From IMG/VR virus record IMGVR_UViG_3300037991_000495, positions 1 to 36,845 of that record: DNA of 36,845 nt. One strand, 5' to 3'. This DNA is from a virus (taxonomy: Duplodnaviria > Caudoviricetes). The notes under the pieces were generated by a model. The model searched no databases and was not told the origin of the DNA. It saw nothing but the letters and a program-made list of their open reading frames with translations. The stretch's first letter is position 1; each line of letters starts with the position of its first letter. A program made the translations under genes and the position numbers. Shown here in pieces: positions 5,436 through 36,800 of this stretch.

Positions 5436-5558
5436 ATCCCCCCCATATTTCTCTGGGTGAAGACAGCCAAGGCATATATCCTCACCAGTGCCTAGCGTAA
5501 CCCAGTTGTTTTCGAAGTAATCACATTGCTTGCCGCAGTATGCGCAGTTAAACAACAT
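5430..5558 (-). CDS. Small zinc-finger protein
   Basis: MLFNCAYCGKQ...ICLGC (two CxxC); start reassigned to the internal Met. Confidence 0.6.
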   Translation of the reverse strand: MLFNCAYCGKQCDYFENNWVTLGTGEDICLGCLHPEKYGGDK

Positions 5559-5934
5559 GGATCTTCTTGTAGATTTGTGAGTTTTTGCTTTTGTGGCTTT
5601 GCGGTTCTTCTGGGCCAAATTCACGCTCCTTCAACTCGTCAACAAGATGCTCTGCTTTTTTTAACCAGCTTGTGAATTTTGGTGAAGGTACGCGCTGCGA
5701 CACATGAATCATTGTGGAATGATCTCTGTTCAAAACATGCCCCATCCTGCAATACGACATGGTTGTATGATCTTCACAAAGGCGTACAAACAGTTGCCGT
5801 GCATCCACAAAGTATGCCTTACGGCGCTTGCCGCGTAACTCTGCCAAGCTAAACTTGGTCACTTGTTGCACGATTTCAACAATGTCCAGAGCCTCTAACT
5901 CGCGGCAGTATTTTTTCCACTCACTTTGGGACAT
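5548..5934 (-). CDS. Protein with a DnaA domain IV-like DNA-binding HTH
   Basis: LRGKRRK...ARQL...SY..MG..LNRDHSTMIH matches the DnaA C-terminal signature (R-D-H-S/T-T); no AAA+ domain; start uncertain (5934 or up to 5994). Confidence 0.8.
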   Translation of the reverse strand: MSQSEWKKYCRELEALDIVEIVQQVTKFSLAELRGKRRKAYFVDARQLFVRLCEDHTTMSYCRMGHVLNRDHSTMIHVSQRVPSPKFTSWLKKAEHLVDELKEREFGPEEPQSHKSKNSQIYKKIHVV

Positions 5935-6151
5935 CCTGTTGGCTTTTTGTCTGCCTGATATTACCCTCTCCGACATTGGAATTATCTTTTGCACGTTCTT
6001 CCTCCGTTATCATTTCCATCGCTGCCTCGAAACAACGCTTCGTAAATGTCAACATTTCTTTGCTGTCCATTTTTTTGATGTGGAGGTTGCCATCAACGCT
6101 GACAGCAACCCCATCGTTTCTAGGTATCACTAGGAATGTTTGCTGGTTCAT
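5921..6151 (-). CDS. Hypothetical protein
   Basis: GAAAGGA RBS before the ATG at 6151; operon position. Confidence 0.65.
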   Translation of the reverse strand: MNQQTFLVIPRNDGVAVSVDGNLHIKKMDSKEMLTFTKRCFEAAMEMITEEERAKDNSNVGEGNIRQTKSQQDVPK

Positions 6152-6335
6152 CCGTAATCCTTTCGATTTCGGCTCGTGTAATGTACCAACGCCCACCCAA
6201 ACGCTTGCCCTTGATAATGCCCCTCTGGAGCATCCTGTTGACTATGTTGAGTTGAGCCTTGGTATCCTTGCCAAACAACACTAGAGCGGCCTCTCTGGGC
6301 CTTAGAAGCGCCTTAGAAGGGGATGTCTGGGTCAT
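6120..6335 (-). CDS. Excisionase/MerR-type HTH DNA-binding protein
   Basis: LLRPREAA...VNRMLQRGIIKGKRLGGRWYITRAEIE; GAGGA RBS before the ATG at 6335. Confidence 0.75.
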   Translation of the reverse strand: MTQTSPSKALLRPREAALVLFGKDTKAQLNIVNRMLQRGIIKGKRLGGRWYITRAEIERITDEPANIPSDT

Positions 6336-6660
6336 CGTCCTCTGCCTTTGGTTGTGGTGCCGCATATTTGGTGCTGATTGCGTTGCCGATTGGCTTCATA
6401 GCTGGCTGTGAAATGCCGTCAGCGATACTGTCCTCACCTTCGTACTCAGTAACTCTTGAGATGCGAATAGAGATAGTGCCATCGTCGTTGGGGAACAGCG
6501 ATACTTGGTGGCGTTGTCCATCTCGCAAGGTGATGTCCGCATAAGTCTTCTGTTCAGCGTCGTAAGGCTTCCAGTTGCCATTGCTATACTGCGCCTTGCC
6601 CTTTCCCTCAGTGTTGGGAAACAGCTTGATGTAGGTAAGTGTTTCATAGCGTCTAGCCAT
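6313..6660 (-). CDS. Single-stranded DNA-binding protein (putative)
   Basis: Acidic SSB-type tail EDDDPDIPF; adjacent to the annealing protein gene. Confidence 0.7.
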   Translation of the reverse strand: MARRYETLTYIKLFPNTEGKGKAQYSNGNWKPYDAEQKTYADITLRDGQRHQVSLFPNDDGTISIRISRVTEYEGEDSIADGISQPAMKPIGNAISTKYAAPQPKAEDDDPDIPF

Positions 6661-8912: not shown

Positions 8913-9194
8913 TCACTCACCACTATCGTGACGGATGGCAATCTGATGCATCAGTTCAGCAATCACCAAAGCAGAAGTGACCTTTGACCTCAAAGGAGCC
9001 TTAGTCGCCCAGCCAAATTCGTCTGTCTTCCTTTTAATATCCAGACCGTAGTGATTGTTTTTGAAACCTGTCCTATCAGGGAGCCAATGCCCCATCCAAG
9101 GCTCACCGTCGATATCTACATGCAACCAATATACCGCTTTGTCGTTGTCGGCTGACTTCCTTGTGTAATCAAGGATGGTAACCTTCTTTGTCAT
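8913..9194 (-). CDS. Hypothetical protein, first gene of the leftward operon
   Basis: AGAAAGG RBS before the ATG at 9194. Confidence 0.7.
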   Translation of the reverse strand: MTKKVTILDYTRKSADNDKAVYWLHVDIDGEPWMGHWLPDRTGFKNNHYGLDIKRKTDEFGWATKAPLRSKVTSALVIAELMHQIAIRHDSGE

Positions 9195-9246
9195 AGTGTG
9201 CCTTTCTGTTCTTTTCTGTGGTTTCTGTAGGGTTATTGCATACGAC

Positions 9247-9261
9247 TTGACAGACTGTCAA
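9247..9261. promoter_or_regulatory. Perfect palindrome TTGACAG-A-CTGTCAA: back-to-back -35 boxes and probable operator
   Basis: Gives TTGACA on both strands between divergent genes 9194 and 9282; the -10 boxes are non-consensus. Confidence 0.7.
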
Positions 9262-9281
9262 TACATTTGTTAGAAAAAGAT

Positions 9282-9485
9282 ATGACGTTATCTGAGTATC
9301 TAAAAGCAAACCGAATTAGTCAGGCCAAGTTTGCACGCCGTTGCAACTTGTCACCGGCTGCTATTTGTCGAATACTTGATGGCAACAGATATCCAACACC
9401 GGAAACTATGCGCCGGATTTTTTTGGCAACAGAAGGGCAGGTGAAACCAAATGACTTTTTTACCCAAAAAATGCGAGGAATGTAA
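9282..9485 (+). CDS. Cro/XRE-family HTH regulator
   Basis: MTLSEYLKANRISQAKFARRCNLSPAAICRILDGNRYP...TEGQVKPNDF. Confidence 0.88.
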   Translation: MTLSEYLKANRISQAKFARRCNLSPAAICRILDGNRYPTPETMRRIFLATEGQVKPNDFFTQKMRGM

Positions 9486-9639
9486 CGGCTCTGGCTGGGT
9501 GCGTGTACGCAGTAACTGGGATGAGGGCGATGTTGTGCCTGATCTCTGCCCTGATTGCCGTGGCACTGGTGAGTTTTATTTACAGCGTCCTGAGTTTTTT
9601 CAAGAGGCTGACATCGATGCGCAAGGCGCATTTAAATAA
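9451..9639 (+). CDS. Small Zn-finger protein (DnaJ-type CxxCxGxG x2)
   Basis: CEECNGSG and CPDCRGTG. Confidence 0.75.
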   Translation: MTFLPKKCEECNGSGWVRVRSNWDEGDVVPDLCPDCRGTGEFYLQRPEFFQEADIDAQGAFK

Positions 9640-9642
9640 ATA

Positions 9643-9734
9643 CTGACGTGAGTATCACCGCTGGGAAGTGGCGAAAGCGTCAGAATAGTGGGGCCAGGAA
9701 TGTACTGCGTCAGCGGCTAAACTTCTGGCCCCAC
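9643..9734 (+). ncRNA. Candidate structured RNA (two long hairpins) flanked by 13-bp direct repeats
   Basis: CTGACGT/GCGTCAG stem and a 12-bp GTGGGGCCAGGA/TTCTGGCCCCAC stem; GCATTTAAATAAA at 9628-9640 and 9745-9757. Confidence 0.5.
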
Positions 9735-9768
9735 GCCTCAAAGAGCATTTAAATAAAGGAGTATAAAT

Positions 9769-9924
9769 ATGTTACAATCCATCATCAGATTGTTTTTCCC
9801 CTCTCTTTCACAGCCTGCGGCAGAGCAACCAAGTGCAACACCACCGCGCATCGTAGAAAAAACAGCGCCAAAGAAAGCTGTTGCTAAAAAGCGTGGGCGT
9901 GGCAGACCTAAGAAAAAAGTGTAG
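9769..9924 (+). CDS. AT-hook protein, 51 aa (not in the ORF track)
   Basis: AAGGAG RBS; MLQSIIRLFFPSL...KKRGRGRPKKKV. Confidence 0.8.
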   Translation: MLQSIIRLFFPSLSQPAAEQPSATPPRIVEKTAPKKAVAKKRGRGRPKKKV

Positions 9925-9928
9925 TTTT

Positions 9929-10099
9929 TTGAAGTGTTTTGTTTGCGACGGTCAAGTAATCCATGGCGGCGATCATAGCTATGAAGATTACGGCATGGAA
10001 GGTGATGGTATAGTCTCAAATTTGCATTGTAGTGATTGTGGCAGGTTTTACTTGATGTACTCGCCAGAGGATGACGATGACCAAGATGCAGCGCAATAA
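9929..10099 (+). CDS. Small Zn-ribbon protein (TTG start)
   Basis: KCFVC...HCSDCG; start uncertain. Confidence 0.65.
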   Translation: MKCFVCDGQVIHGGDHSYEDYGMEGDGIVSNLHCSDCGRFYLMYSPEDDDDQDAAQ

Positions 10100-10463
10100 A
10101 GGCAGTCAGTTTGAACGCTGGTGCTGCAATGAAATCAAGGACCATCTTGGCTATGAGAACGTGCGCAGGAACCTTTCACAATATCAAGAAAAGGGCGGCG
10201 CTGATATCCTGATACCGCATTGGTCTATTGAGTGTAAGCGGTATGCCACAGGGCCACATGGCGGCGCTGACGCATGGTGGCAGCAGGCTGTTAATGCTGC
10301 TGGCGACCTTTCTCCGCTATTAATCTATAAATATGACCGGCATGAGCCAGTGTGTAAGCTGTTTCTCTGCGACGTTAACAAAGAGTTTACCGGCACTGAT
10401 GCAACGGTGCTGGTTTCTCTGCCAACTTGGTTCTACATTGTGCGCGAGGCTATCCCTTTCTGA
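10071..10463 (+). CDS. Holliday junction resolvase, Hjc-like PD-(D/E)XK nuclease
   Basis: RNKGSQFER...GADIL...IECKR...WWQQA motifs; GAGGA RBS. Confidence 0.82.
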   Translation: MTMTKMQRNKGSQFERWCCNEIKDHLGYENVRRNLSQYQEKGGADILIPHWSIECKRYATGPHGGADAWWQQAVNAAGDLSPLLIYKYDRHEPVCKLFLCDVNKEFTGTDATVLVSLPTWFYIVREAIPF

Positions 10464-10468
10464 TGGGG

Positions 10469-10497
10469 TTGCCAGTCAATGCGATTCATGATATTAA
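10469..10497 (+). promoter_or_regulatory. Sigma70-type promoter pointing into a non-coding region
   Basis: TTGCCA-N17-TATTAA with a TG extended -10. Confidence 0.5.
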
Positions 10498-10660
10498 GAA
10501 TTTCTTAGCAAAGCCGCGCAGCATACTGCGCATTGCCGAGAAAGCAGCGCACTGCCTACATGCTTTCCTTTTATTTATATAAAAAAAGGCATGGCTTAGT
10601 GCAACGCACTGCACACATTGCTACGCGCAGCATTGCTAGGGATTTCCTCCCAGTCAAACT

Positions 10661-10690
10661 AAAAGAGGGGCTTACGCCCCTCTCTCTTTC
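10661..10690. terminator. Intrinsic terminator, probably bidirectional
   Basis: AGAGGGGC-TTAC-GCCCCTCT perfect 8-bp stem; T-tract on the minus strand, pyrimidine tract on the plus strand; ends the leftward early operon. Confidence 0.75.
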
Positions 10691-11052
10691 TCTGCATAGT
10701 GATGCTTGGCATGGCAGTTGTGGCATAGCACAAAGCATTTTCGTAACTCTGCCACTATCGTTGACCATTTGTAGTGCGTTGCATTGCCAATGCTGAATAG
10801 CTTGTTGGTCTTGTGATGATGAAAACAAAGGCTTGCCGGATGTTTCTCTGCACACTGACAGCAACCATGCGCTGACTTTGCTAGGTCTAAGAATGCCTGT
10901 CTTTTGATGCGCACTTGTTTGTTGTCTACTGTAATGCGCTTCTTGCATCTGGCAAAGACTTCTGGTGATCTCCAATCCTCGCCGTTTTTGGACTTTTTGT
11001 TGTAGCCCCAAAAGACTTTTCCATCATCTCTGATGTCGCCATGCTTTAGCAT
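10672..11052 (-). CDS. HNH endonuclease
   Basis: CCQC...LCFHH...ELRKCFVLCHNCHAKHH; AAAGGATCAG RBS. Confidence 0.8.
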   Translation of the reverse strand: MLKHGDIRDDGKVFWGYNKKSKNGEDWRSPEVFARCKKRITVDNKQVRIKRQAFLDLAKSAHGCCQCAEKHPASLCFHHHKTNKLFSIGNATHYKWSTIVAELRKCFVLCHNCHAKHHYAEKERGA

Positions 11053-11231
11053 TTGTCTGATCCTTTCTCTGCCGCCTCCTGCCGTGCCACATCTTCAGCG
11101 GTGGAAATTGCACCAGCCATACGCGACCAGCCATCATCAGGTTTGGAACTACCACTTGCACATATGTCGTATAATTTTGTCAGCGCGTCCAAAACTTCTT
11201 TTTTAGTCATAGCCTGTCGTGTGATTTTCAT
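11046..11231 (-). CDS. Hypothetical early protein (start MKITRQ)
   Basis: AAAGGATCAG RBS and ATGA overlap with the upstream HTH gene. Confidence 0.75.
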   Translation of the reverse strand: MKITRQAMTKKEVLDALTKLYDICASGSSKPDDGWSRMAGAISTAEDVARQEAAEKGSDKC

Positions 11232-11407
11232 TTCTCTGATCCTTTCTCTGCTAGGCATCTAAGCAACAGCGCCACCGGTTGCGGTACCTTTCGCTTGCCT
11301 GTTTCATAATACCAAATGGCTTGCTCACTCACTCCAATGCGCTGCGCCATGGCTTTGATGGTAAGGCTTAGTCTCTGCCTTTCCTGTTTGAATTCCTGTG
11401 GTGTCAT
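11228..11407 (-). CDS. XRE-family HTH protein, 59 aa (not in the ORF track)
   Basis: MTPQEFKQERQRLSLTIKAMAQRIGVSEQAIWYYETGKRKVPQPVALLLRCLAEKGSEK; RBS AGAAAGGTATATC. Confidence 0.88.
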   Translation of the reverse strand: MTPQEFKQERQRLSLTIKAMAQRIGVSEQAIWYYETGKRKVPQPVALLLRCLAEKGSEK

Positions 11408-11422
11408 GATATACCTTTCTGG

Positions 11423-11499
11423 CTAGTGAAGGCAGGGGGTTTGCTGATCCTTTCCCCCTGCCTTTTTAGTTGGGGCGGGGCCGTTAGGCCGCCGCCTTT
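11423..11499 (+). ncRNA. Candidate anti-RBS small RNA (hairpin loop UUUGCUGAUCCUUU)
   Basis: 11-bp perfect stem (11429-11439/11454-11464) with a 14-nt loop antisense to the shared early RBS; U-tract; second hairpin at 11472-11498; G-U pairs favour the + strand; possible promoter TTGAAT-N18-TACCTT at 11388-11417. Confidence 0.6.
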
Positions 11500-11786
11500 C
11501 TGAAATAACCGCCGCGCATAACAAGGTGCGGCTCGTATCGTGGGTGCATCGGAAGCCAAGCATAGGTTGCGTACTTCTTGCCGTTCTTCAGCACGTCAAT
11601 CGTCACAAGCTTTTTGCGACGAAATTCGCCAGCCAAGCCCAAGTTCTGACAGTGCCATCTGTCAGCCTTGCTGCTGTAAATATATCTTTCCGCATCGTTC
11701 TTTGCCTCTGTGACCGTCGCAAACCCATCTTTGGTAATCACAACGTCATTGACTAAATCGCGGATTGTCAGGCTGTAGCCCTTCAT
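11484..11786 (-). CDS. Hypothetical early protein
   Basis: AAAGGATCAG RBS. Confidence 0.8.
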   Translation of the reverse strand: MKGYSLTIRDLVNDVVITKDGFATVTEAKNDAERYIYSSKADRWHCQNLGLAGEFRRKKLVTIDVLKNGKKYATYAWLPMHPRYEPHLVMRGGYFRKAAA

Positions 11787-11805
11787 TTTTCTGATCCTTT
11801 CTCTG

Positions 11806-11955
11806 TTAACGCCTGATTAGGTCTAGTGGTGTCATGCAGTCAGGATGCCCCCAGTCGTTTACCAATGCACAGCCTGTAAGCACGTTGTAAAGGCACCACA
11901 TAATCAAGGCGTAGAAGCCTATAAATACCAGTGTTCCGATGATTGCCTTTGTCAT
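11806..11955 (-). CDS. Small membrane protein, 49 aa (not in the ORF track)
   Basis: MTKAIIGTLVFIGFYALIMWCLYNVLTGCALVNDWGHPDCMTPLDLIRR; ATGA overlap with the upstream gene. Confidence 0.75.
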   Translation of the reverse strand: MTKAIIGTLVFIGFYALIMWCLYNVLTGCALVNDWGHPDCMTPLDLIRR

Positions 11956-12158
11956 GTTCTTTCCTCACCGATAATTTCTTTTACTGCATCCAGTCGTTGC
12001 CTTTCTCTCAAACCCTCCTCATAAGCGATAATTTGTTTTACTGCATCTAAAGCATCTTCATAAGCGCTGGTGGCTTCATCCTTCCGATCTACCACCAACA
12101 TCAGCGCCATAAACTCAAGTTTAAACTTGGCCAGCTTGGCCTTTTCAATGGTTGTCAT
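11952..12158 (-). CDS. Hypothetical early protein (start MTTIEK)
   Basis: AAAGGATCAA RBS variant before the ATG at 12158. Confidence 0.75.
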   Translation of the reverse strand: MTTIEKAKLAKFKLEFMALMLVVDRKDEATSAYEDALDAVKQIIAYEEGLRERQRLDAVKEIIGEERT

Positions 12159-12174
12159 TGCTCTTGATCCTTTT

Positions 12175-12942
12175 CTAGTGAGTGATGAAAACAACAGGCT
12201 TTGACGCCTGCCAACACAAGCCACACGCGCCGCAGTCAGGCGCAAGCGTCTCTTCGTCTTTCTTGGCTAGCTTGCCGGTGGCTTTGCTAATTTGTGTGGG
12301 GCATTTGAAAGCCTGTTTATCTGTGACAAGCTGTGCCGACCTAGCGTCGTCATATGACAACGCGGCAAACTCTTGGCTGTAACTGCCAGAGAAACGCACA
12401 GCAAAGCGCATACCGCATTCATTGCGCAGGGTAAGCAAAGCCTGCCCTATGGCACGCTCTTGGCTGTCCGTCGCGTCTGGTTGGTTGGCCGTGTATCCAT
12501 ACACATGCAAGGCAGGAAACATGCCAAGCCATTTGGCCCATTGCGCGACATATGCAACGGAAAAGAAATCACCAAGCACATGCAAGCGCACTAAAAAGCC
12601 CTTTGGATATTTGGCCTGATAGAAAGCTAAATCAGCTTCTATCTGTGTAACCAGTGCATCGTCTGCTGCATAGCGTGTGGCGTTCATCATGTTGTTGCCA
12701 TAGCAGTCTGCCCAATGGATGCAAGAGCGTGGGCAAGTGGCGCGTTCTTCCAGTGTCACGGTAAAGATAGGAAAGCCTGCTAGCTTGCCCTTGGAAACGC
12801 GCTTGCCTAACTTGGTGTTGGTGCTTTTCTTTACGACCCTTTCGCTTGCGGCCATGCCGTCGGCCACACTCTTGGCGCGTAGATCATGATAGACACTACG
12901 CCCAGCCATTACGGCCATTTGTGTTTTTGTCATTTGTTGCAT
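12175..12942 (-). CDS. Gp88-like Cys-rich protein (mycobacteriophage L5 gp88 family; radical-SAM-like)
   Basis: NTKLG, TCPRSCIHWADCY, VRLHVLGDF, YGYT, CP...CGACGLCW...VFITH; start set by the AAAGGATCAG RBS. Confidence 0.75.
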   Translation of the reverse strand: MQQMTKTQMAVMAGRSVYHDLRAKSVADGMAASERVVKKSTNTKLGKRVSKGKLAGFPIFTVTLEERATCPRSCIHWADCYGNNMMNATRYAADDALVTQIEADLAFYQAKYPKGFLVRLHVLGDFFSVAYVAQWAKWLGMFPALHVYGYTANQPDATDSQERAIGQALLTLRNECGMRFAVRFSGSYSQEFAALSYDDARSAQLVTDKQAFKCPTQISKATGKLAKKDEETLAPDCGACGLCWQASKPVVFITH

Positions 12943-12973
12943 TGTTGCTGATCCTTTTTTGTTAGTGTCTGAT

Positions 12974-13036
12974 GGCCTCATCAGTGCCGGCGATACCGGC
13001 AGACATAGCGCGGGATTGCCGCGCCATGTTTCGGCC
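12974..13036 (-). ncRNA. Hammerhead ribozyme, type II
   Basis: Minus strand reads GGCC GAAA CAUGGCGCGG CAAUC CCGCGCUAUG UC/ UGCCGG UAUCG CCGGCA CUGAUGA GGCC: intact CUGAUGA and GAAA core, GUC site, and all three stems pair. Confidence 0.92.
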
Positions 13037-13290
13037 TAAAATTTGAAGATACCGCGCAGCGGGTCAGGCTCGCGATAAAGCGGGTTAGGCTCCCGCTGTA
13101 CTGTCCAGCCCTTTTCCTTCCATCTCTTGATGCACTCTTTATACGCGTAGGCGCCGCCTATATAGCCTTCGCCGGTCAAGCCGTCTTCTTCCGGTGGCAA
13201 AAGCCAGCCCCAGCCTGTACGGTTCGATATCTCTCTTTTTTTACCGTCGCGGATTGCTACCGTAATCGTTTTGTTGCGTGTCTCTTTCAT
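13036..13290 (-). CDS. Hypothetical protein, first gene of the early operon
   Basis: AGAAAGGATCAG RBS. Confidence 0.78.
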   Translation of the reverse strand: MKETRNKTITVAIRDGKKREISNRTGWGWLLPPEEDGLTGEGYIGGAYAYKECIKRWKEKGWTVQREPNPLYREPDPLRGIFKF

Positions 13291-13353
13291 GTTCTGATCC
13301 TTTCTAAAACAGGGACAGTTGAAGCTCGGCGGCTGCCGGTGCTTGTGTAAAGA

Positions 13354-13384
13354 ACCCTACCATTGGTTAGGTATAGACTGTCAA
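13354..13384 (-). promoter_or_regulatory. Probable early leftward promoter
   Basis: TTGACA-N19-TAGGGT with a TG extended -10; the spacing is atypical; shares TTGACAGTCT with the 9261 site. Confidence 0.5.
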
Positions 13385-13709
13385 CCCAAAAAATGATATT
13401 GAATAAATGTTTTTTTGCACGGCACGGCAAAGCACTCGTACAGGCGCATATATATAATGCATCGAATGCTCAAAATGAGGCATTGCAATCCGCCCGAAAT
13501 ATTTAGAATTGCATCTGGTTTTGTCGCTGTTGGGTGTTCCAGCACACACACAGCACAGACGATTACGCGCAGCAATGCCAGCGACACATTGCCAGCGCCG
13601 CACAGCAGCGACCCAGCGGGGGGGCAAAACAAAGGCATCGCCCCCGCGACGCGCGGCCACGGTCTATGTGTGTTAATTGCCCCATACCCACACACAGTCA
13701 GGAGGAAGC

Positions 13710-14099
13710 ATGGCTAGGCTAACGCAGAGCAAGGCAGAGAGCGTTGCTGAGTTAGTGATGCAAGGGCATAGTCTTGTCAGTGCATGCAAAGAGGCGAAGA
13801 TCAGCAGGTCAGTGCTGTATCAGAAGATGGGGGAGGATGCTGAGTTAAGTAATCTTATTCGTACAGCGCAGCAGCAGAGTGCGGAGAAGGCATTGGAGGA
13901 TGTCGAGGTTATGTATCAGGATCAGCTAGAGGGGAAGAAGAAGTATGATCCTAATGTATTAAGGGATTATGCTTTGCATGTCAGGTGGAAGGTAGGCAAG
14001 GTTATGCCGGATCAGTATGGTGATGCGAAGAACCGTGCTGGTGTAGAGGTAAGTGACGGCACGGTGCGCATTGTTTGGGAGAGCGATGGTGCAGGTTAA
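13710..14099 (+). CDS. terS: Terminase small subunit
   Basis: N-terminal HTH (GHSLVSACKEAKISRSVLY), RWKVGKVMPDQYGD motif, AGGAGG RBS, directly upstream of terL. Confidence 0.85.
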   Translation: MARLTQSKAESVAELVMQGHSLVSACKEAKISRSVLYQKMGEDAELSNLIRTAQQQSAEKALEDVEVMYQDQLEGKKKYDPNVLRDYALHVRWKVGKVMPDQYGDAKNRAGVEVSDGTVRIVWESDGAG

Positions 14100-31925: not shown

Positions 31926-33806
31926 ATGACGGTTAGCAGCACCACTACAAAAAGTTCGCATTCGGGAAATGGTGTTCTCGACACCTTTGCCTATGCCTTC
32001 AAAATCTTTGCAGACGATGACTTGGTTGTTATCATCCGCACCAACTCTACTGGTGCTGAAGCCACTAAGACAAAGACAACGCATTATACGGTTACAGGTG
32101 TTGGCAGCGCGTCTGGTGGCAACGTCGTATTTACCAGCGGCAACATTCCGGCGTCAGGCGAAACTGTTGTTATCAAAAGAAATTTAACCCTTACGCAAGC
32201 TACCGATTATGTAGCCAATGACCCGTTCCCTGCCGATAGTCACGAAGATGCGCTTGATCGTTTGACCATGATTGCGCAACAGCAACAAGAGGTGTTTGAC
32301 CGTGCTGTTGTTTTGCCGGAGACAGATACGGCGTCAACAACAATTCCAGACTCTGTAACCCGTGCTAGCAAATATCTGGCTTTCAATTCTAGTGGCGATT
32401 TTATAGCGGCGGCAGGAACGGCTGATGTAACGCCCATTAGTTCTGCGATGGAACCAGTAGTAGAAGCATCTACTTTAGCGGCTGGGCGAACCGCATTGTT
32501 AAGCGGCACAAACTTGTCAGTGAACACGTCCAACACTATTACCACAACTAACACCAACGGCGACTTAACTTTGACGCCTAACGGCACTGGAACCGTGATT
32601 GTCAGCACTGACCTAGATGTCGATAACATTAATATCAATGCCAATACTATCAGCAGCACTAACACCAACGGCGATATAACGCTAGACCCCAACGGCACTG
32701 GCAATGTTGCGATCGCAGGACCAATTACTTGTGGTTATATTGCGTCAACCATATCTGACCACACCAACCTTACACTTATATCTACAAACGCAGATGCAGC
32801 CGCTGGACCTAGAATGGAGTTTAAAAGAAACTCTGCTAGTCCAGCCGATTCAGATGTTTGTGGCGAAATCTCATTTCAGGCCAAAAATGATGCTGATGAA
32901 TATGTAGTGATCAATAATATCAAAGCCTCTATTGCCGATGTAACTGACGGCACAGAAGATGGCTTACTTAAAATACGCACAATGCAAAACGGCACGATGG
33001 TTGAGTCAATAAGTATGTACGATTACCAAACAGTCTTCAATGGCGATGGTAAAGACATAGACTTCCGTATCGACGGCAGCAATGCAATCGGCACCCACGT
33101 TTTCTTTATGCAAGCAAGTGATGGCCATATCGGAATACAAACCGACACGCCGCAGCATCCGTTAGATGTGCGTGCAAGTTTTGACGGTTATATGATGCAG
33201 ATTTTTAACGATGGCAATCATGTTAACCGCTATGGTTTGAAAATACAATGTGGCGCAGATAGTGGCAACCAAGTATTTGCAGCCTTTGAGGATGGTGACG
33301 GCAATTCTCATGGTAGCATACAAGGTTCTAGCGGCACAGTTTCATACAATACATTTACGGCTGGCCACCCCGCTACCTTGCCATCAAGCGATACTGCTGC
33401 GGGATATCCCTACGGCACACTGGTTGAAACAGTAGGCATTTCATATGCTACTAATTCAAGTGGTGACGCCCTTCGTAGCGCAATTATTTACAACGTACAG
33501 AAATCATCCTCTGCAAATAGTAAGTCTGTCTTGGGGGCTTACGCATCAAAAGACAATGTAAACGACGGTCAGCATATCATTTATGTGCTGGGCGACGGCC
33601 ACATCCTTTGCAACAACTCCGGTGGTAACATTGCAGTCGGTGACGGTATATGCACATCCGCAACGGCTGGCATTGGCCAAAAGGCAACTGCAAGTCCAAG
33701 TATGATCATCGGTATCGCGCAAGAAGCTGTGACCTTCGCCAGCGGCAGCGAAACAAAGTTGGTTGCAGTGCAGTATGGCCTGCAACAATTTACTCCTTGG
33801 TCTTAA
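31926..33806 (+). CDS. Tail fibre protein 1 with a T7 gp17-like N-terminal attachment domain
   Basis: MTVS...GNG....FAYAF.IF...DL.V, FPADSHEDALDRLT; NTNGD.TL.PNGTG repeats; AAGGAG RBS. Confidence 0.87.
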   Translation: MTVSSTTTKSSHSGNGVLDTFAYAFKIFADDDLVVIIRTNSTGAEATKTKTTHYTVTGVGSASGGNVVFTSGNIPASGETVVIKRNLTLTQATDYVANDPFPADSHEDALDRLTMIAQQQQEVFDRAVVLPETDTASTTIPDSVTRASKYLAFNSSGDFIAAAGTADVTPISSAMEPVVEASTLAAGRTALLSGTNLSVNTSNTITTTNTNGDLTLTPNGTGTVIVSTDLDVDNININANTISSTNTNGDITLDPNGTGNVAIAGPITCGYIASTISDHTNLTLISTNADAAAGPRMEFKRNSASPADSDVCGEISFQAKNDADEYVVINNIKASIADVTDGTEDGLLKIRTMQNGTMVESISMYDYQTVFNGDGKDIDFRIDGSNAIGTHVFFMQASDGHIGIQTDTPQHPLDVRASFDGYMMQIFNDGNHVNRYGLKIQCGADSGNQVFAAFEDGDGNSHGSIQGSSGTVSYNTFTAGHPATLPSSDTAAGYPYGTLVETVGISYATNSSGDALRSAIIYNVQKSSSANSKSVLGAYASKDNVNDGQHIIYVLGDGHILCNNSGGNIAVGDGICTSATAGIGQKATASPSMIIGIAQEAVTFASGSETKLVAVQYGLQQFTPWS

Positions 33807-33826
33807 AATAGCCGGTTAGATAAACT

Positions 33827-36800
33827 ATGACTGTTAGTGCAGGCTCTGCAACGTACAAACTTTACACGGGCGACGGCAGCACGCATGTTTTTGCTTACAC
33901 GTTTCGTATTTTTAAAGAGACAGAACTACTTGTTTTAATTAGAAATAATACAACCGGCGCTATACATATAGCAACAGACAATGCGCGTAGCGGCAGCTAT
34001 GATCCTGACACGCATGTCGGTGGCCAAGGTTTGAATACAGCTTATATTCTGTCTGGCGTAGATTCGGCTAGTGGCGGCAATGTAACATTCAAGTACGATA
34101 CGGGCAGCCCATCAGACGCGCATTATAGTGGCACAGATTACAGGCCGCAATCTGGTGAAAGCGTCATTATTATCAGGTTGCCAACGGTAAGCCAGGAAAC
34201 AGATTATGTAGTGGGCGGTGCCTTTCCTGCCGAGTCGCATGAAGATGCACTTGATAAGCTGACATTCCATGTGCAACGTTTAGAAGACAAGGTAAACAAA
34301 AGCATTCAAAGGTCAGAGGCCGACACTGGCGTTGTTGGTAGCAGCATAGATAAATCTTTATCAGTATTGCCTGACCACGCTACCCTAAAGGGCAAAGTTC
34401 TATCCTTTAATTCAAGCACTGGGGCAACAGAGGCAACTATAAGTGCAGCGGATGTCACGTTGCTAACAAGTTCTCAAACATTAACAAACAAAAGTTTATC
34501 AGCACCCATTCTTAGCGGCTCTTCCAGTTCGGCTGGATCTATCCTGTTTAAAGAAGACACAGACAACGGCACTAATGCAGTTACATTAATTGGGCCAGCG
34601 TCTACAGCAGACATTACAATAACGCTGCCAGCTAACGCAGGCACTATTGCCTTAACGTCTGACATACCTACAAGCGGCATATCTAGTGGCAATATTGCAA
34701 CATTTACAAGTGGTGTAGTTGACGATGATTTCCTGCGCATAAATGGCACTGCTGTAGAAGGCCGATCAGCGTCTGAGGTTTTATCAGATATTGGCGCACA
34801 GGCTAGTTTGACCTTTGGCATTGGTGATGCGAATGCTGTCAAAATTGACAGTGCTTCAGTAGCAGATGATGAGTATGCACGCTTTACATCCAGCGGTTTG
34901 GAAAGCCGATCAACATCAGAGGTTCTGTCTGACATTGGCGCTATAAGCACGTCAAGCACTGACACTCTTACAAATAAAACGCTAACCAGTGCAGTGTTGA
35001 ACGACACTATTTCCGGCACCAGCATCAAAGATGAAGACAACATGGCGTCTGACAGCGCCAGTCATTTGGCCACACAACAGTCCATTAAGGCTTATGTAGA
35101 TACGCAGGTAGCTACCGTACCAACAGGCGATATAACTGCTGTTACGGCTGGCACAGGGCTGTCTGGCGGCGGTTCTTCTGGTGATGTTACGCTTAATGTT
35201 GACACTGGTATATCAAACGGCCAGATAGCGGCCTTTACCAGCGGTGCTGTAGACAACGATTTCCTCAGAATAGATGGCACAGCCATCGAAGGCCGCTCTG
35301 CTTCTGAAGTGCTGTCTGACATAGCGGCTATGCCATTGGCTGGTGGCACGTTTACAGGCGATGTTACGCTCTTGTCTACGGATGCGGGTGCTGGCACTAG
35401 CCCTATTATTAAGTTGCACCGCCAAAGTGTAAGCCCCGCCGATGGTGACAACATAGGATCAGTTCAATACATTGCTAGAAATGACGCTGACGAGGACATT
35501 GTTTATGGGGAGATACGGGGAGATGCCGCAGATGTAAGTGATGGCACAGAAGACGGCAAAATATTTGTGTACATCAAAGATGGCGGGTCAGACCGTTTGG
35601 TCACAGAGTTTACATCCTATGGCGTTCAGTTTCACGAAAACGTAAACATTCAAAGTGGTAAAACTTTACGATTTGAAGGTGCAACCGCAGACGATTACGA
35701 AATTACTTTGACTGTGGCTGACCCGCAGGATAGCGACAAGACCATCACCCTACCGGATGCTACTGGCACGGTCCTCCTGACTGACGGTAGCGGCGCAAGT
35801 CTTACATCACTGAACGCTTCTGAATTAGGCAGCGGAACTGTACCCAATGCTAGGTTAGACGCACAGCTACAGGATGTGGCTGGCCTTGCTGTCACCAACG
35901 GTAATTTTATCGTAGGTGACGGTAGTAACTTTGTAGCAGAGTCCGGCGCGACGGCCAGAACCAGCCTTGGCCTTGGCACCATAGCCACACAAGCCGCCGA
36001 CAGCGTAAACATCGACGGCGGTGCTATCGACGCCGTTACGCTCGGCACAAACAGTGCGGTTACCGAAGCGCAGATTGATAATATCAATATCGATGGCAAC
36101 ACAATTAGCATCACAAATACAAACGGGAATATTGGAATTACCCCAAACGGCACTGGCGATGTTCACCTAAACACAGATAACGTCCGTATTGGCGACCTTA
36201 ACGCCGACGCATCTATAACTACGAGAGGCACCGGCGACCTAACACTCAATACGAACGGCGGCACCAACTCCGGTTCTATCGTCATTGCAGATGGCGCAAA
36301 CGGAAACATCAGCATTACGCCAGATGGCACAGGCGTCTTAGATGTTATCTCAACGGATGACGGGAGCAGCATTGGTCCAAAGCTGCATCTTTACCGTAAC
36401 AGCGCAAGCCCCGCAGACTTCGATGATTTAGGCGCGTTGTACTTTACGGGCAACGACGACGCAGGAAATCGTCAGGAATACGCCTTTATTCGCGGAGACG
36501 CTGCTGATGTTTCAAGCGGCAGTGAAGATGCAGCTATACGTTATTTTACGAATGTCGGCGGCTCAACCGTTGAACATATGCAGCACTCTTTCGGGACAAC
36601 TACTATTTACGGAAGAATATACCTAGCTAGTAACGCCATCCACTCTGATCCACATATTCGGTTTGAGGGCAGCAGTGCTAATAACTTTGAGACTGACCTA
36701 AAAGTAACAGACCCAACCGCCGACAGAACGATCACCTTCCCTGACGCCACCGGCGAAGTTGTTACCAAGGACAGCAGTGACGTTGTTACGATTACATCAA

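Follow-up and report, generated by a model that had tools for sequence, protein, structure and literature searches.

Short repeats placed just before start codons have been known in phages since 2011 without a function (PMC3203893; PMC11373665). Start-Associated Sequences (SAS) were described in Cluster K mycobacteriophages, where the reader, RNA or protein, was left open and one reverse copy was recorded in four K1 phages (PMC3203893), a SAS-like motif was reported in Cluster EF Microbacterium phages (PMC7302621), and in 2024 the role of SAS was still called unknown (PMC11373665). Here we describe a candidate reader for such a motif in IMG/VR record IMGVR_UViG_3300037991_000495, analysed over its whole length of 36,845 nt (hereafter the window): a tag before six genes of one leftward operon is mirrored, as its antisense, in the loop of a hairpin within the same operon. 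There is strong comparative support from related sequences that the loop tracks the tag across lineages, and we propose that a predicted small RNA (sRNA) displaying this loop reads the tag.

The tag resembles an SAS in being an asymmetric repeat a few nucleotides before ATG (here 3-5 nt) in one orientation, restricted to non-structural genes and conserved beyond its complementarity to 16S ribosomal RNA. It differs from it in sequence (AAAGGATCAG against the Cluster K consensus GGGATAGGAGCCC) and in host group; 17-bp inverted repeats of the ESAS type were not evident in the listed 32-nt leaders, for which no dedicated search was made. Judged from its sequence and placement, the tag works like an SAS but is not homologous to one. 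The extra copies also differ, since the one described here stands in tag orientation, is read from the opposite strand and co-varies with the tag, whereas the Cluster K loop did not co-vary. In Anaya (59870-59882; L208:31871-31883), Angelica and Shaobing the reverse SAS copy occupies a hairpin loop in the interval that matches, by gene order, the reported late-transcription start of Adephagia, and in L208, L209 and L211 this open loop lies downstream of a conserved TTTTAGACT box. Such an open loop was seen in 3 of 11 Cluster K phages examined (fold z -1.25 to -1.57); in the remaining eight it was different or missing, with the SAS unchanged in all three of those that were checked. Because the loop varies while the SAS does not, we treat the Cluster K reverse copy as a lead and not as support.

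Several families of regulatory RNA offer parallels to the predicted reader. Lambda OOP, P22 Sar and plasmid R1 CopA are cis-encoded antisense RNAs with one fully complementary target each, and the predicted RNA shares with them its short length and a position on the strand opposite the operon, where it has a putative promoter and terminator of its own; it differs in that its seed also matches many separate gene starts. The C4 RNAs of P1 and P7 and the CI RNA of P4 are small phage RNAs with lineage-specific sequences that repress genes of their own phage through short loop pairing, all of which is also predicted here. C4 and CI, which confer superinfection immunity, are, however, cut out of the transcript that also contains their one or two target regions, whereas the present RNA is predicted to be a primary transcript of the opposite strand with six ribosome-site targets. 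An Rfam scan of window positions 9000-13800 gave three weak matches, no family fitting the hairpin and no c4 or CI match up to E=5, and the complementary loop lies opposite the target strand. C4 and CI maturation is described as involving RNase P (PMC5499578). The cuckoo sRNAs of Alphaproteobacteria display CCUCCUCCC in their loops (PMC4615179) and are similar in presenting a constant pyrimidine-rich motif on variable stems; as described in that source, they are chromosomal and carry CCUCCUCCC on two to four hairpins, while the present element has a single loop with a UGAUCC core that matches a phage-private tag, and it was not assigned to them. A pelagiphage transcriptome paper covering other phage types contains neither 'sRNA' nor 'antisense' (PMC12753301), and no phage sRNA directed against a common ribosome-site tag was described in what a full-text literature search returned, outside which most subscription papers lie.

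Results

A tag before likely early genes and its antisense in a hairpin loop

By its sequence, this uncultured phage is a podovirus of HTVC010P type with relatives among the Pelagibacter phages of the ocean. Tags and hairpin are found where eight small genes run leftward, flanked by the small terminase gene and RusA; this operon is likely early, as judged from position and gene type. On its minus strand AAAGGATCAG occurs in six exact copies (11057, 11236, 11444, 11791, 12948 and 13294) against 0.04 expected, a number reached in 0 of 100 shuffles. Allowing one mismatch gives 13 matches against 2.0 expected, including 12164 and six scattered sites without an evident gene start. An ATG follows 3-5 nt downstream of five exact copies and of the 12164 copy, all on the minus strand, which bears out the recurrent motif that a first-pass annotation, made from the letters of the window, had noticed before the leftward genes:

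13294..13303, minus strand: tag before gene 13036-13290 (84 aa, no family)
12948..12957, minus strand: tag before the gp88-like gene 12175-12942 (Pfam GP88), with a 13-bp match to the RNA loop
12164..12173, minus strand: one-mismatch tag (AAAGGATCAA) before gene 11952-12158
11791..11800, minus strand: tag before gene 11484-11786 (100 aa, no family)
11236..11245, minus strand: tag before gene 11046-11231 (61 aa)
11057..11066, minus strand: tag before the HNH endonuclease gene 10672-11052

The view of the operon as one tagged early gene set holds for six of its eight genes; the gene at 11806-11955 and a helix-turn-helix (HTH) gene are untagged. Outside the operon the tag stands at none of 28 late or 9 middle starts, in agreement with the annotation, in which it had not been noticed at other gene starts. 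Pairing with 16S ribosomal RNA accounts for one part of the tag: AGAAAGGA pairs with the alphaproteobacterial 16S tail (GGAUCACCUCCUUUCU, taken from Roseivivax, from which the true host may differ) and TCAG, as had been suspected, does not extend this pairing. In a sample of four alphaproteobacterial genomes, which need not include the host, AAAGGATCA is present at just 6 of 540 starts of the AAAGGA type; the tag is thus no generic ribosome site. It is a private extension of the Shine-Dalgarno sequence, AAAGGA plus UCAG. The gene content around it is mosaic, and the junctions have AGAGAAAGG in common.

The remaining exact copy, at 11444-11453, has no start codon beside it, nor is there one within 13 nt in any of the 21 class A elements (below), among which the window is counted. 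The annotation had placed it in a hairpin loop, and it does lie in one, the 14 nt at 11440-11453 closed by a perfect stem of 11 bp; the 13-nt pairing proposed with the start of the gp88-like gene was likewise recovered. The parts of the element are as follows:

11422..11467, plus strand: predicted ~46-nt small RNA (ends predicted) with a free 5' GCUAGU, a stem of 11-12 bp, a 14-nt loop and a U-tract; fold z -3.56; layout common to 21 distinct class A elements
11440..11453, plus strand: loop UUUGCUGAUCCUUU, antisense to the tag; mean unpaired probability 0.93; 13 of 14 loop columns invariant
11429..11464, plus strand: perfect 11-bp stem (11429-11439 with 11454-11464), then TTTTT at 11463-11467; likely also a terminator; fold z -4.15; relatives change the outer stem on both sides (L196)
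11422..11428, plus strand: predicted second seed GCUAGUG, by comparison with relatives antisense to a CACUAGC tag upstream of many of their early ribosome sites
11407..11415, plus strand: predicted extended -10 box TG-A-TATACC, overlapping the HTH start codon and the spacer; TA present in 47 of 47 elements
11472..11498, plus strand: second hairpin followed by TTTCT, which may be a back-up terminator; it is not conserved, the other class A rows being without it

Two details of the annotation had to be given up. The extension of the stem through G-U pairs depends on bases specific to the window, and relatives keep the 5' GCUAGU unpaired; TACCTT is replaced as -10 by the conserved register TG-A-TATACC. 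A consensus promoter scan detected neither of these two -10 sequences; what matches a -35 is under coding constraint, and in class C it is misplaced. Covariation gives no evidence for the inner G5/C5 stem of class A, which is invariant except for one G-U.

Seven forms of the element and their tags

Related loci were collected by motif (35), large terminase (best 80 of 590), HTH (14), small terminase (best 80 of 104) and metagenome pattern (13); 12 of the 35 motif-scan loci showed no resemblance to the window and were discarded as chance matches. An HTH profile matched 109 of 195 sequences with 59 distinct upstream regions, 47 of which were kept, the other 12 comprising eight unrelated HTH genes, one truncated duplicate and three regions of a sister lineage without the element. 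Among the 79 (redundant) loci reached by protein scans only, 32 have the window loop, 22 another GATC loop, 13 only GCTAG and 12 none, so that conservation of the loop is not a product of the motif search.

The 47 distinct elements all lie directly upstream of the same gene and take seven structural forms:

11228..11407, minus strand: XRE-type HTH gene (Pfam HTH_31/HTH_3) that anchors the element in all classes; its ribosome site is without GGATC

Class A (21 elements, the window included) has a free GCUAGUG and one stem with loop UUUGCUGAUCCUUU, the loop being more conserved than its stem. Class B (5) presents UUUUGUUGAUCCUU on a different stem and has a separate terminator after it, and class C (9) presents CUUGAUCC on a third stem, followed by UUUGCUAGU and then a terminator; 5 of 19 pairs in the class C stems show double-sided change, three of them in the loop-bearing stem. 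A UGAUCC loop is in this way displayed by three unrelated stems (A, B and C; 35 elements). Classes D-G (12) are without a GATC loop and carry UUGCUAG ahead of the terminator. No HTH-hairpin unit was found by eye in HTVC010P itself (record 32199-34892).

The annotation had proposed, as a test, that loop and ribosome-site motif should co-vary in related genomes, and the relatives pass it: the loop is kept, and its changes go with those of the tag, between lineages as well as inside protein families. Early genes were called with a simple purpose-made caller that is blind to the tag and makes some false calls. GGATC is found in 84/145 distinct early starts in class A, 23/44 in B and 51/66 in C (158/255 with a GATC loop), against 0/95 in classes D-G. 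Across the 21 protein families common to both groups the figures are 59/78 in the GATC-loop classes and 0/36 in the others, with 18 of the 21 families switching. The base after GGATCA also follows the loop, the ratio of G to A being 50:31 in class A (loop C) and 8:60 in B and C together (loop U). The second seed behaves similarly. None of the 44 starts of class B, whose RNA is without a free GCUAG, has CTAGCA, which every other class does contain; in class D, GCUAG-UU in the RNA goes with CAA-CTAG in 11 of 12 starts; and the GCUAG-UG RNAs (A, E, G and L107) mostly occur with CA-CTAGC starts. With pairing energies from a simple helix-plus-opening model, the cognate assignment of loops to tags ranks first of 5040 class permutations. 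Class B is split over two supported clades of a 39-row terminase tree, and so is class C: tag and RNA move as a block, and independent changes are few, perhaps four or five.

Which strand is read

In all 47 elements the HTH start codon is followed on the plus strand by n-TA-nnnn, preceded by TG in 43 and with T at -7 in 22. The TA of this putative -10 is found at the same position in 11 of 349 other early gene starts. Alphaproteobacterial promoters are mostly without the -7 T in the source consulted (PMC8407463), and its presence in just 22 of 47 therefore fits a promoter. The structured part starts 6-7 nt past the -10 hexamer, which would place +1 near 11422 and give an RNA of ~46 nt in the window; this gap is also the Shine-Dalgarno site of the HTH gene, so that the spacing alone is no proof of a start site. 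Read on the plus strand, 39 distinct stems contain 27 G-T and 8 A-C juxtapositions, compared with 220:317 in background stems of the same operons (Fisher p 3e-5). The plus strand folds better in 32 of 37 comparisons and carries the T-rich tails. Taken together, the -10 box, wobble pairs, T-tails and folding moderately favour a plus-strand RNA, short of proof.

Proposed mechanism and alternative explanations

We consider it likely, on this comparative evidence, that a phage sRNA blocks translation of the tagged genes as a set. A host sigma70-type promoter overlapping the HTH start codon would fire at ~11422, and the stem plus U-tract would end the RNA. Its open loop would then pair over 9-13 bp with the Shine-Dalgarno site of six genes, while the 5' GCUAGU could make a second contact on genes carrying CUAGC. 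Pairing at this site would exclude the 30S subunit and block ribosome loading on all tagged genes together; exclusion of the 30S subunit by an sRNA lying over a ribosome site is established sRNA logic. In the version to which we commit, the RNA builds up after entry and would bring about a delayed shut-off of small, variable early genes. This timing, its setting by the HTH protein and convergent transcription, and the blocking of a superinfecting relative with the same tag as a side effect, are the most speculative parts of the scheme.

Predicted pairing in the window is in line with such a regulon. Mean net pairing is -9.8 kcal/mol at the 8 operon starts, -2.9 at 9 middle starts (two of the nine middle-gene windows did not end on the start codon) and -2.2 at 28 late starts, one of which reaches -7.6. 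In the relatives the tag is present on 120 of 169 genes with an intergenic gap of their own and on 22 of 73 translationally coupled genes, an excess that is expected if the tag acts at initiation. The element has one hallmark of a base-pairing multi-target sRNA, an accessible, conserved seed complementary to several ribosome sites.

What sets the locus apart from earlier start-associated motifs is a candidate reader encoded within the operon itself; the seven forms in which reader and motif change together amount to natural specificity swaps. If the reading is true, an RNA of 46 nt would control an entire class of genes as their master switch, in relatives of an ocean phage group that is among the most abundant, and would provide a compact, orthogonal tag-and-silence system. 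A bolder extension, possible yet on balance doubtful, is an address code made of RNA only, in which incoming cassettes would be given the tag that matches the resident sRNA, a drifting tag-seed pair would define exclusion groups, and the same logic would be the missing function of SAS in general.

Several observations weigh against translational silencing by an sRNA. Of the class A tags, 31 of 81 end in A and mismatch the loop C; the second-seed flanks of class F and of L069 match poorly; and the own class is the best partner for only five of the seven RNAs. Tag and RNA travel as one block across the terminase tree, shared descent of the repeat would give some co-variation, and p-values overstate independence because the seven classes are related. 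As to strand, the wobble bias is not significant (p=0.22) when set against the element's own base composition, the plus-strand T-tails are the complement of purine-rich leaders common in the operon, the loop is about equally open on the two strands (0.89 on the minus, 0.93 on the plus strand), and in 40 of 47 elements the conserved TA forms part of a TAA or TAG when the coding strand is read. A stop codon as the sole reason for the TA was rejected as a general explanation (the triplet is TAT or TAC in 7 of 47, and classes B, E and G have no open frame there), although it holds for class C. No mirror copy of the leader was found in the sister lineage (L074, L081, L085, L090, L092), which has repeated leaders (CAACGCAA..GGGAGC, ATAGGAGGG); repeated leaders can therefore exist without such an RNA. 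Lastly, in 7 of 9 class C elements a 4-codon frame lies between the loop copy and the HTH gene and ends at the HTH start.

This last point belongs to the strongest of the alternatives, in which the HTH gene is the only target: the RNA would regulate it in cis as an antisense RNA that pairs with its complementary leader hairpin, and the loop would resemble the tags by descent from a gene start; the model would be CopA/CopT of plasmid R1 with its leader peptide. Without exception the element immediately precedes the HTH gene, and the predicted RNA is a full complement of the mRNA stretch that leads up to this gene's ribosome site. In 8 of 9 class C elements a start codon stands 6 nt after the loop copy, and the 4-codon frames (L097:871-890, L177, L178, L183, L185, L186 and L191) have normal ribosome-site spacing after that copy and end one base before the HTH start; in class D, L061 and L080 have a 5-codon frame ending at the same point. 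Such a frame is absent from the window and not consistent in classes A, B, E, F and G. The annotation had expected the HTH gene, with its different ribosome site, to escape the RNA. The site does differ, GGATC being found within the last 18 nt before the HTH start in 0 of 47 elements, but the escape is doubtful given the complementary leader and the class C frames, and for these two reasons cis control of the HTH gene is a real rival or a second function. As the sole explanation it is unlikely, as it leaves unexplained why GGATC is gained and lost with the loop in unrelated genes (59/78 against 0/36).

Next comes a reading in which the mRNA strand does the work and the tags bind a translational repressor or activator protein, with the hairpin copy as a high-affinity site or decoy. 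RegA and CsrA are the models. The perfect stem also forms on the minus strand with its loop open, the GGA in this loop resembles a CsrA-type site, and a protein reader also predicts co-variation of loop and tag. Against it stand the wobble pairs, folding energy, T-tails and -10 box, all of which point to the plus strand; the only gene conserved across the operon encodes a DNA-binding XRE-HTH protein; and the tag changes specificity often, with no candidate RNA-binding protein seen. The repressor or decoy, offered as an alternative by the annotation, is weakened by the plus-strand evidence and still stands, though as an improbable explanation.

The tags might instead be strong leaders spread by cassette shuffling, the hairpin being only a terminator of rightward read-through that formed around a relic gene start. 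Mosaic gene content and the common sequence at junctions speak for this, as does the sister lineage, which keeps its repeated leaders and a plus-strand terminator-like hairpin one or two genes upstream of the HTH gene. We regard it as quite improbable, since a 14-nt loop is atypical of a terminator and here is better conserved than its stem, and classes B and C carry the loop on a hairpin of its own, with the terminator further downstream. An operator function, in which the XRE-HTH protein would bind the tags as DNA and have one such site close to its gene in a cruciform or leader, would suit the palindromic 4-bp cores of both tags (GATC, CTAG) and the linked gene, but is very improbable for asymmetric tags in one orientation at a fixed 3-5 nt from start codons and for stems with RNA-type G-U pairs.

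A hammerhead-like ribozyme in the same operon

Between the stop codon of the first gene and the ribosome site of the gp88-like gene lies a further structured element:

12970..13036, minus strand: type II hammerhead-like ribozyme in the early transcript (Rfam RF02276, E=0.044, 25.8 bits, gathering score 37); fold z -3.96; predicted cut after C13002

It has the hammerhead core (CUGAnGA, GAAA, NUH), three stems and an open stem II. Of 129 loci searched, 27 others carry such an element with compensated stems and an intact core, before different genes, and it is also present in the sister lineage without the sRNA element. The predicted cleavage would split the early transcript ~45 nt upstream of the ribosome site. 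The hammerhead-like RNA is not required for the sRNA model.

Genome context and other features of the window

The window is the whole record, a single contig of 48% G+C. Its genes include podovirus-type head, tail-tube and internal virion proteins, terminase, RusA and an exonuclease-sized open reading frame (ORF); neither an integrase nor a DNA polymerase was found among the 55 window ORFs scanned. By terminase, the closest cultured phages are HTVC010P-type pelagiphages (50-52% identity). These have 31-33% G+C where stated (PMC8477408), and given this difference the host is probably a different alphaproteobacterium. No close prophage was found among 44 genome loci, the top terminase identity being 58%.

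The second untagged gene of the operon is:

11806..11955, minus strand: small hydrophobic gene; 1 of 11 class A/B members tagged

A candidate early promoter, TTGACA ... TAGGGT with an atypical 19-nt spacer, lies at 13354-13384 on the minus strand, and the neighbouring stretch is conserved in several relatives. Another putative control element is a divergent region at 9194-9485, where a leftward gene start at 9194 faces a 67-aa Cro-like HTH protein (9282-9485). An excisionase-like HTH is encoded at 6120-6365 and a protein with a DnaA C-terminal HTH at 5548-5994.

Two of the Rfam matches, STnc390 (E 0.6) and suhB/mmgR (E 0.81, 10623-10698), look like chance. The weak suhB/mmgR-like stretch, on the plus strand, consists of TTTCCTCCC followed by a GC-rich terminator hairpin, and in some A and B relatives, among those listed, it is a terminator adjoining a GGGAGG-type ribosome site. 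Close to it, between RusA and the end of the leftward operon, 10480-10640 forms an imperfect long palindrome with the AT-rich centre TTTTATTTATATAAAAAAA (fold z -2.6); a similar palindrome is present in classes A-E and G and may be a replication origin or a bidirectional terminator.

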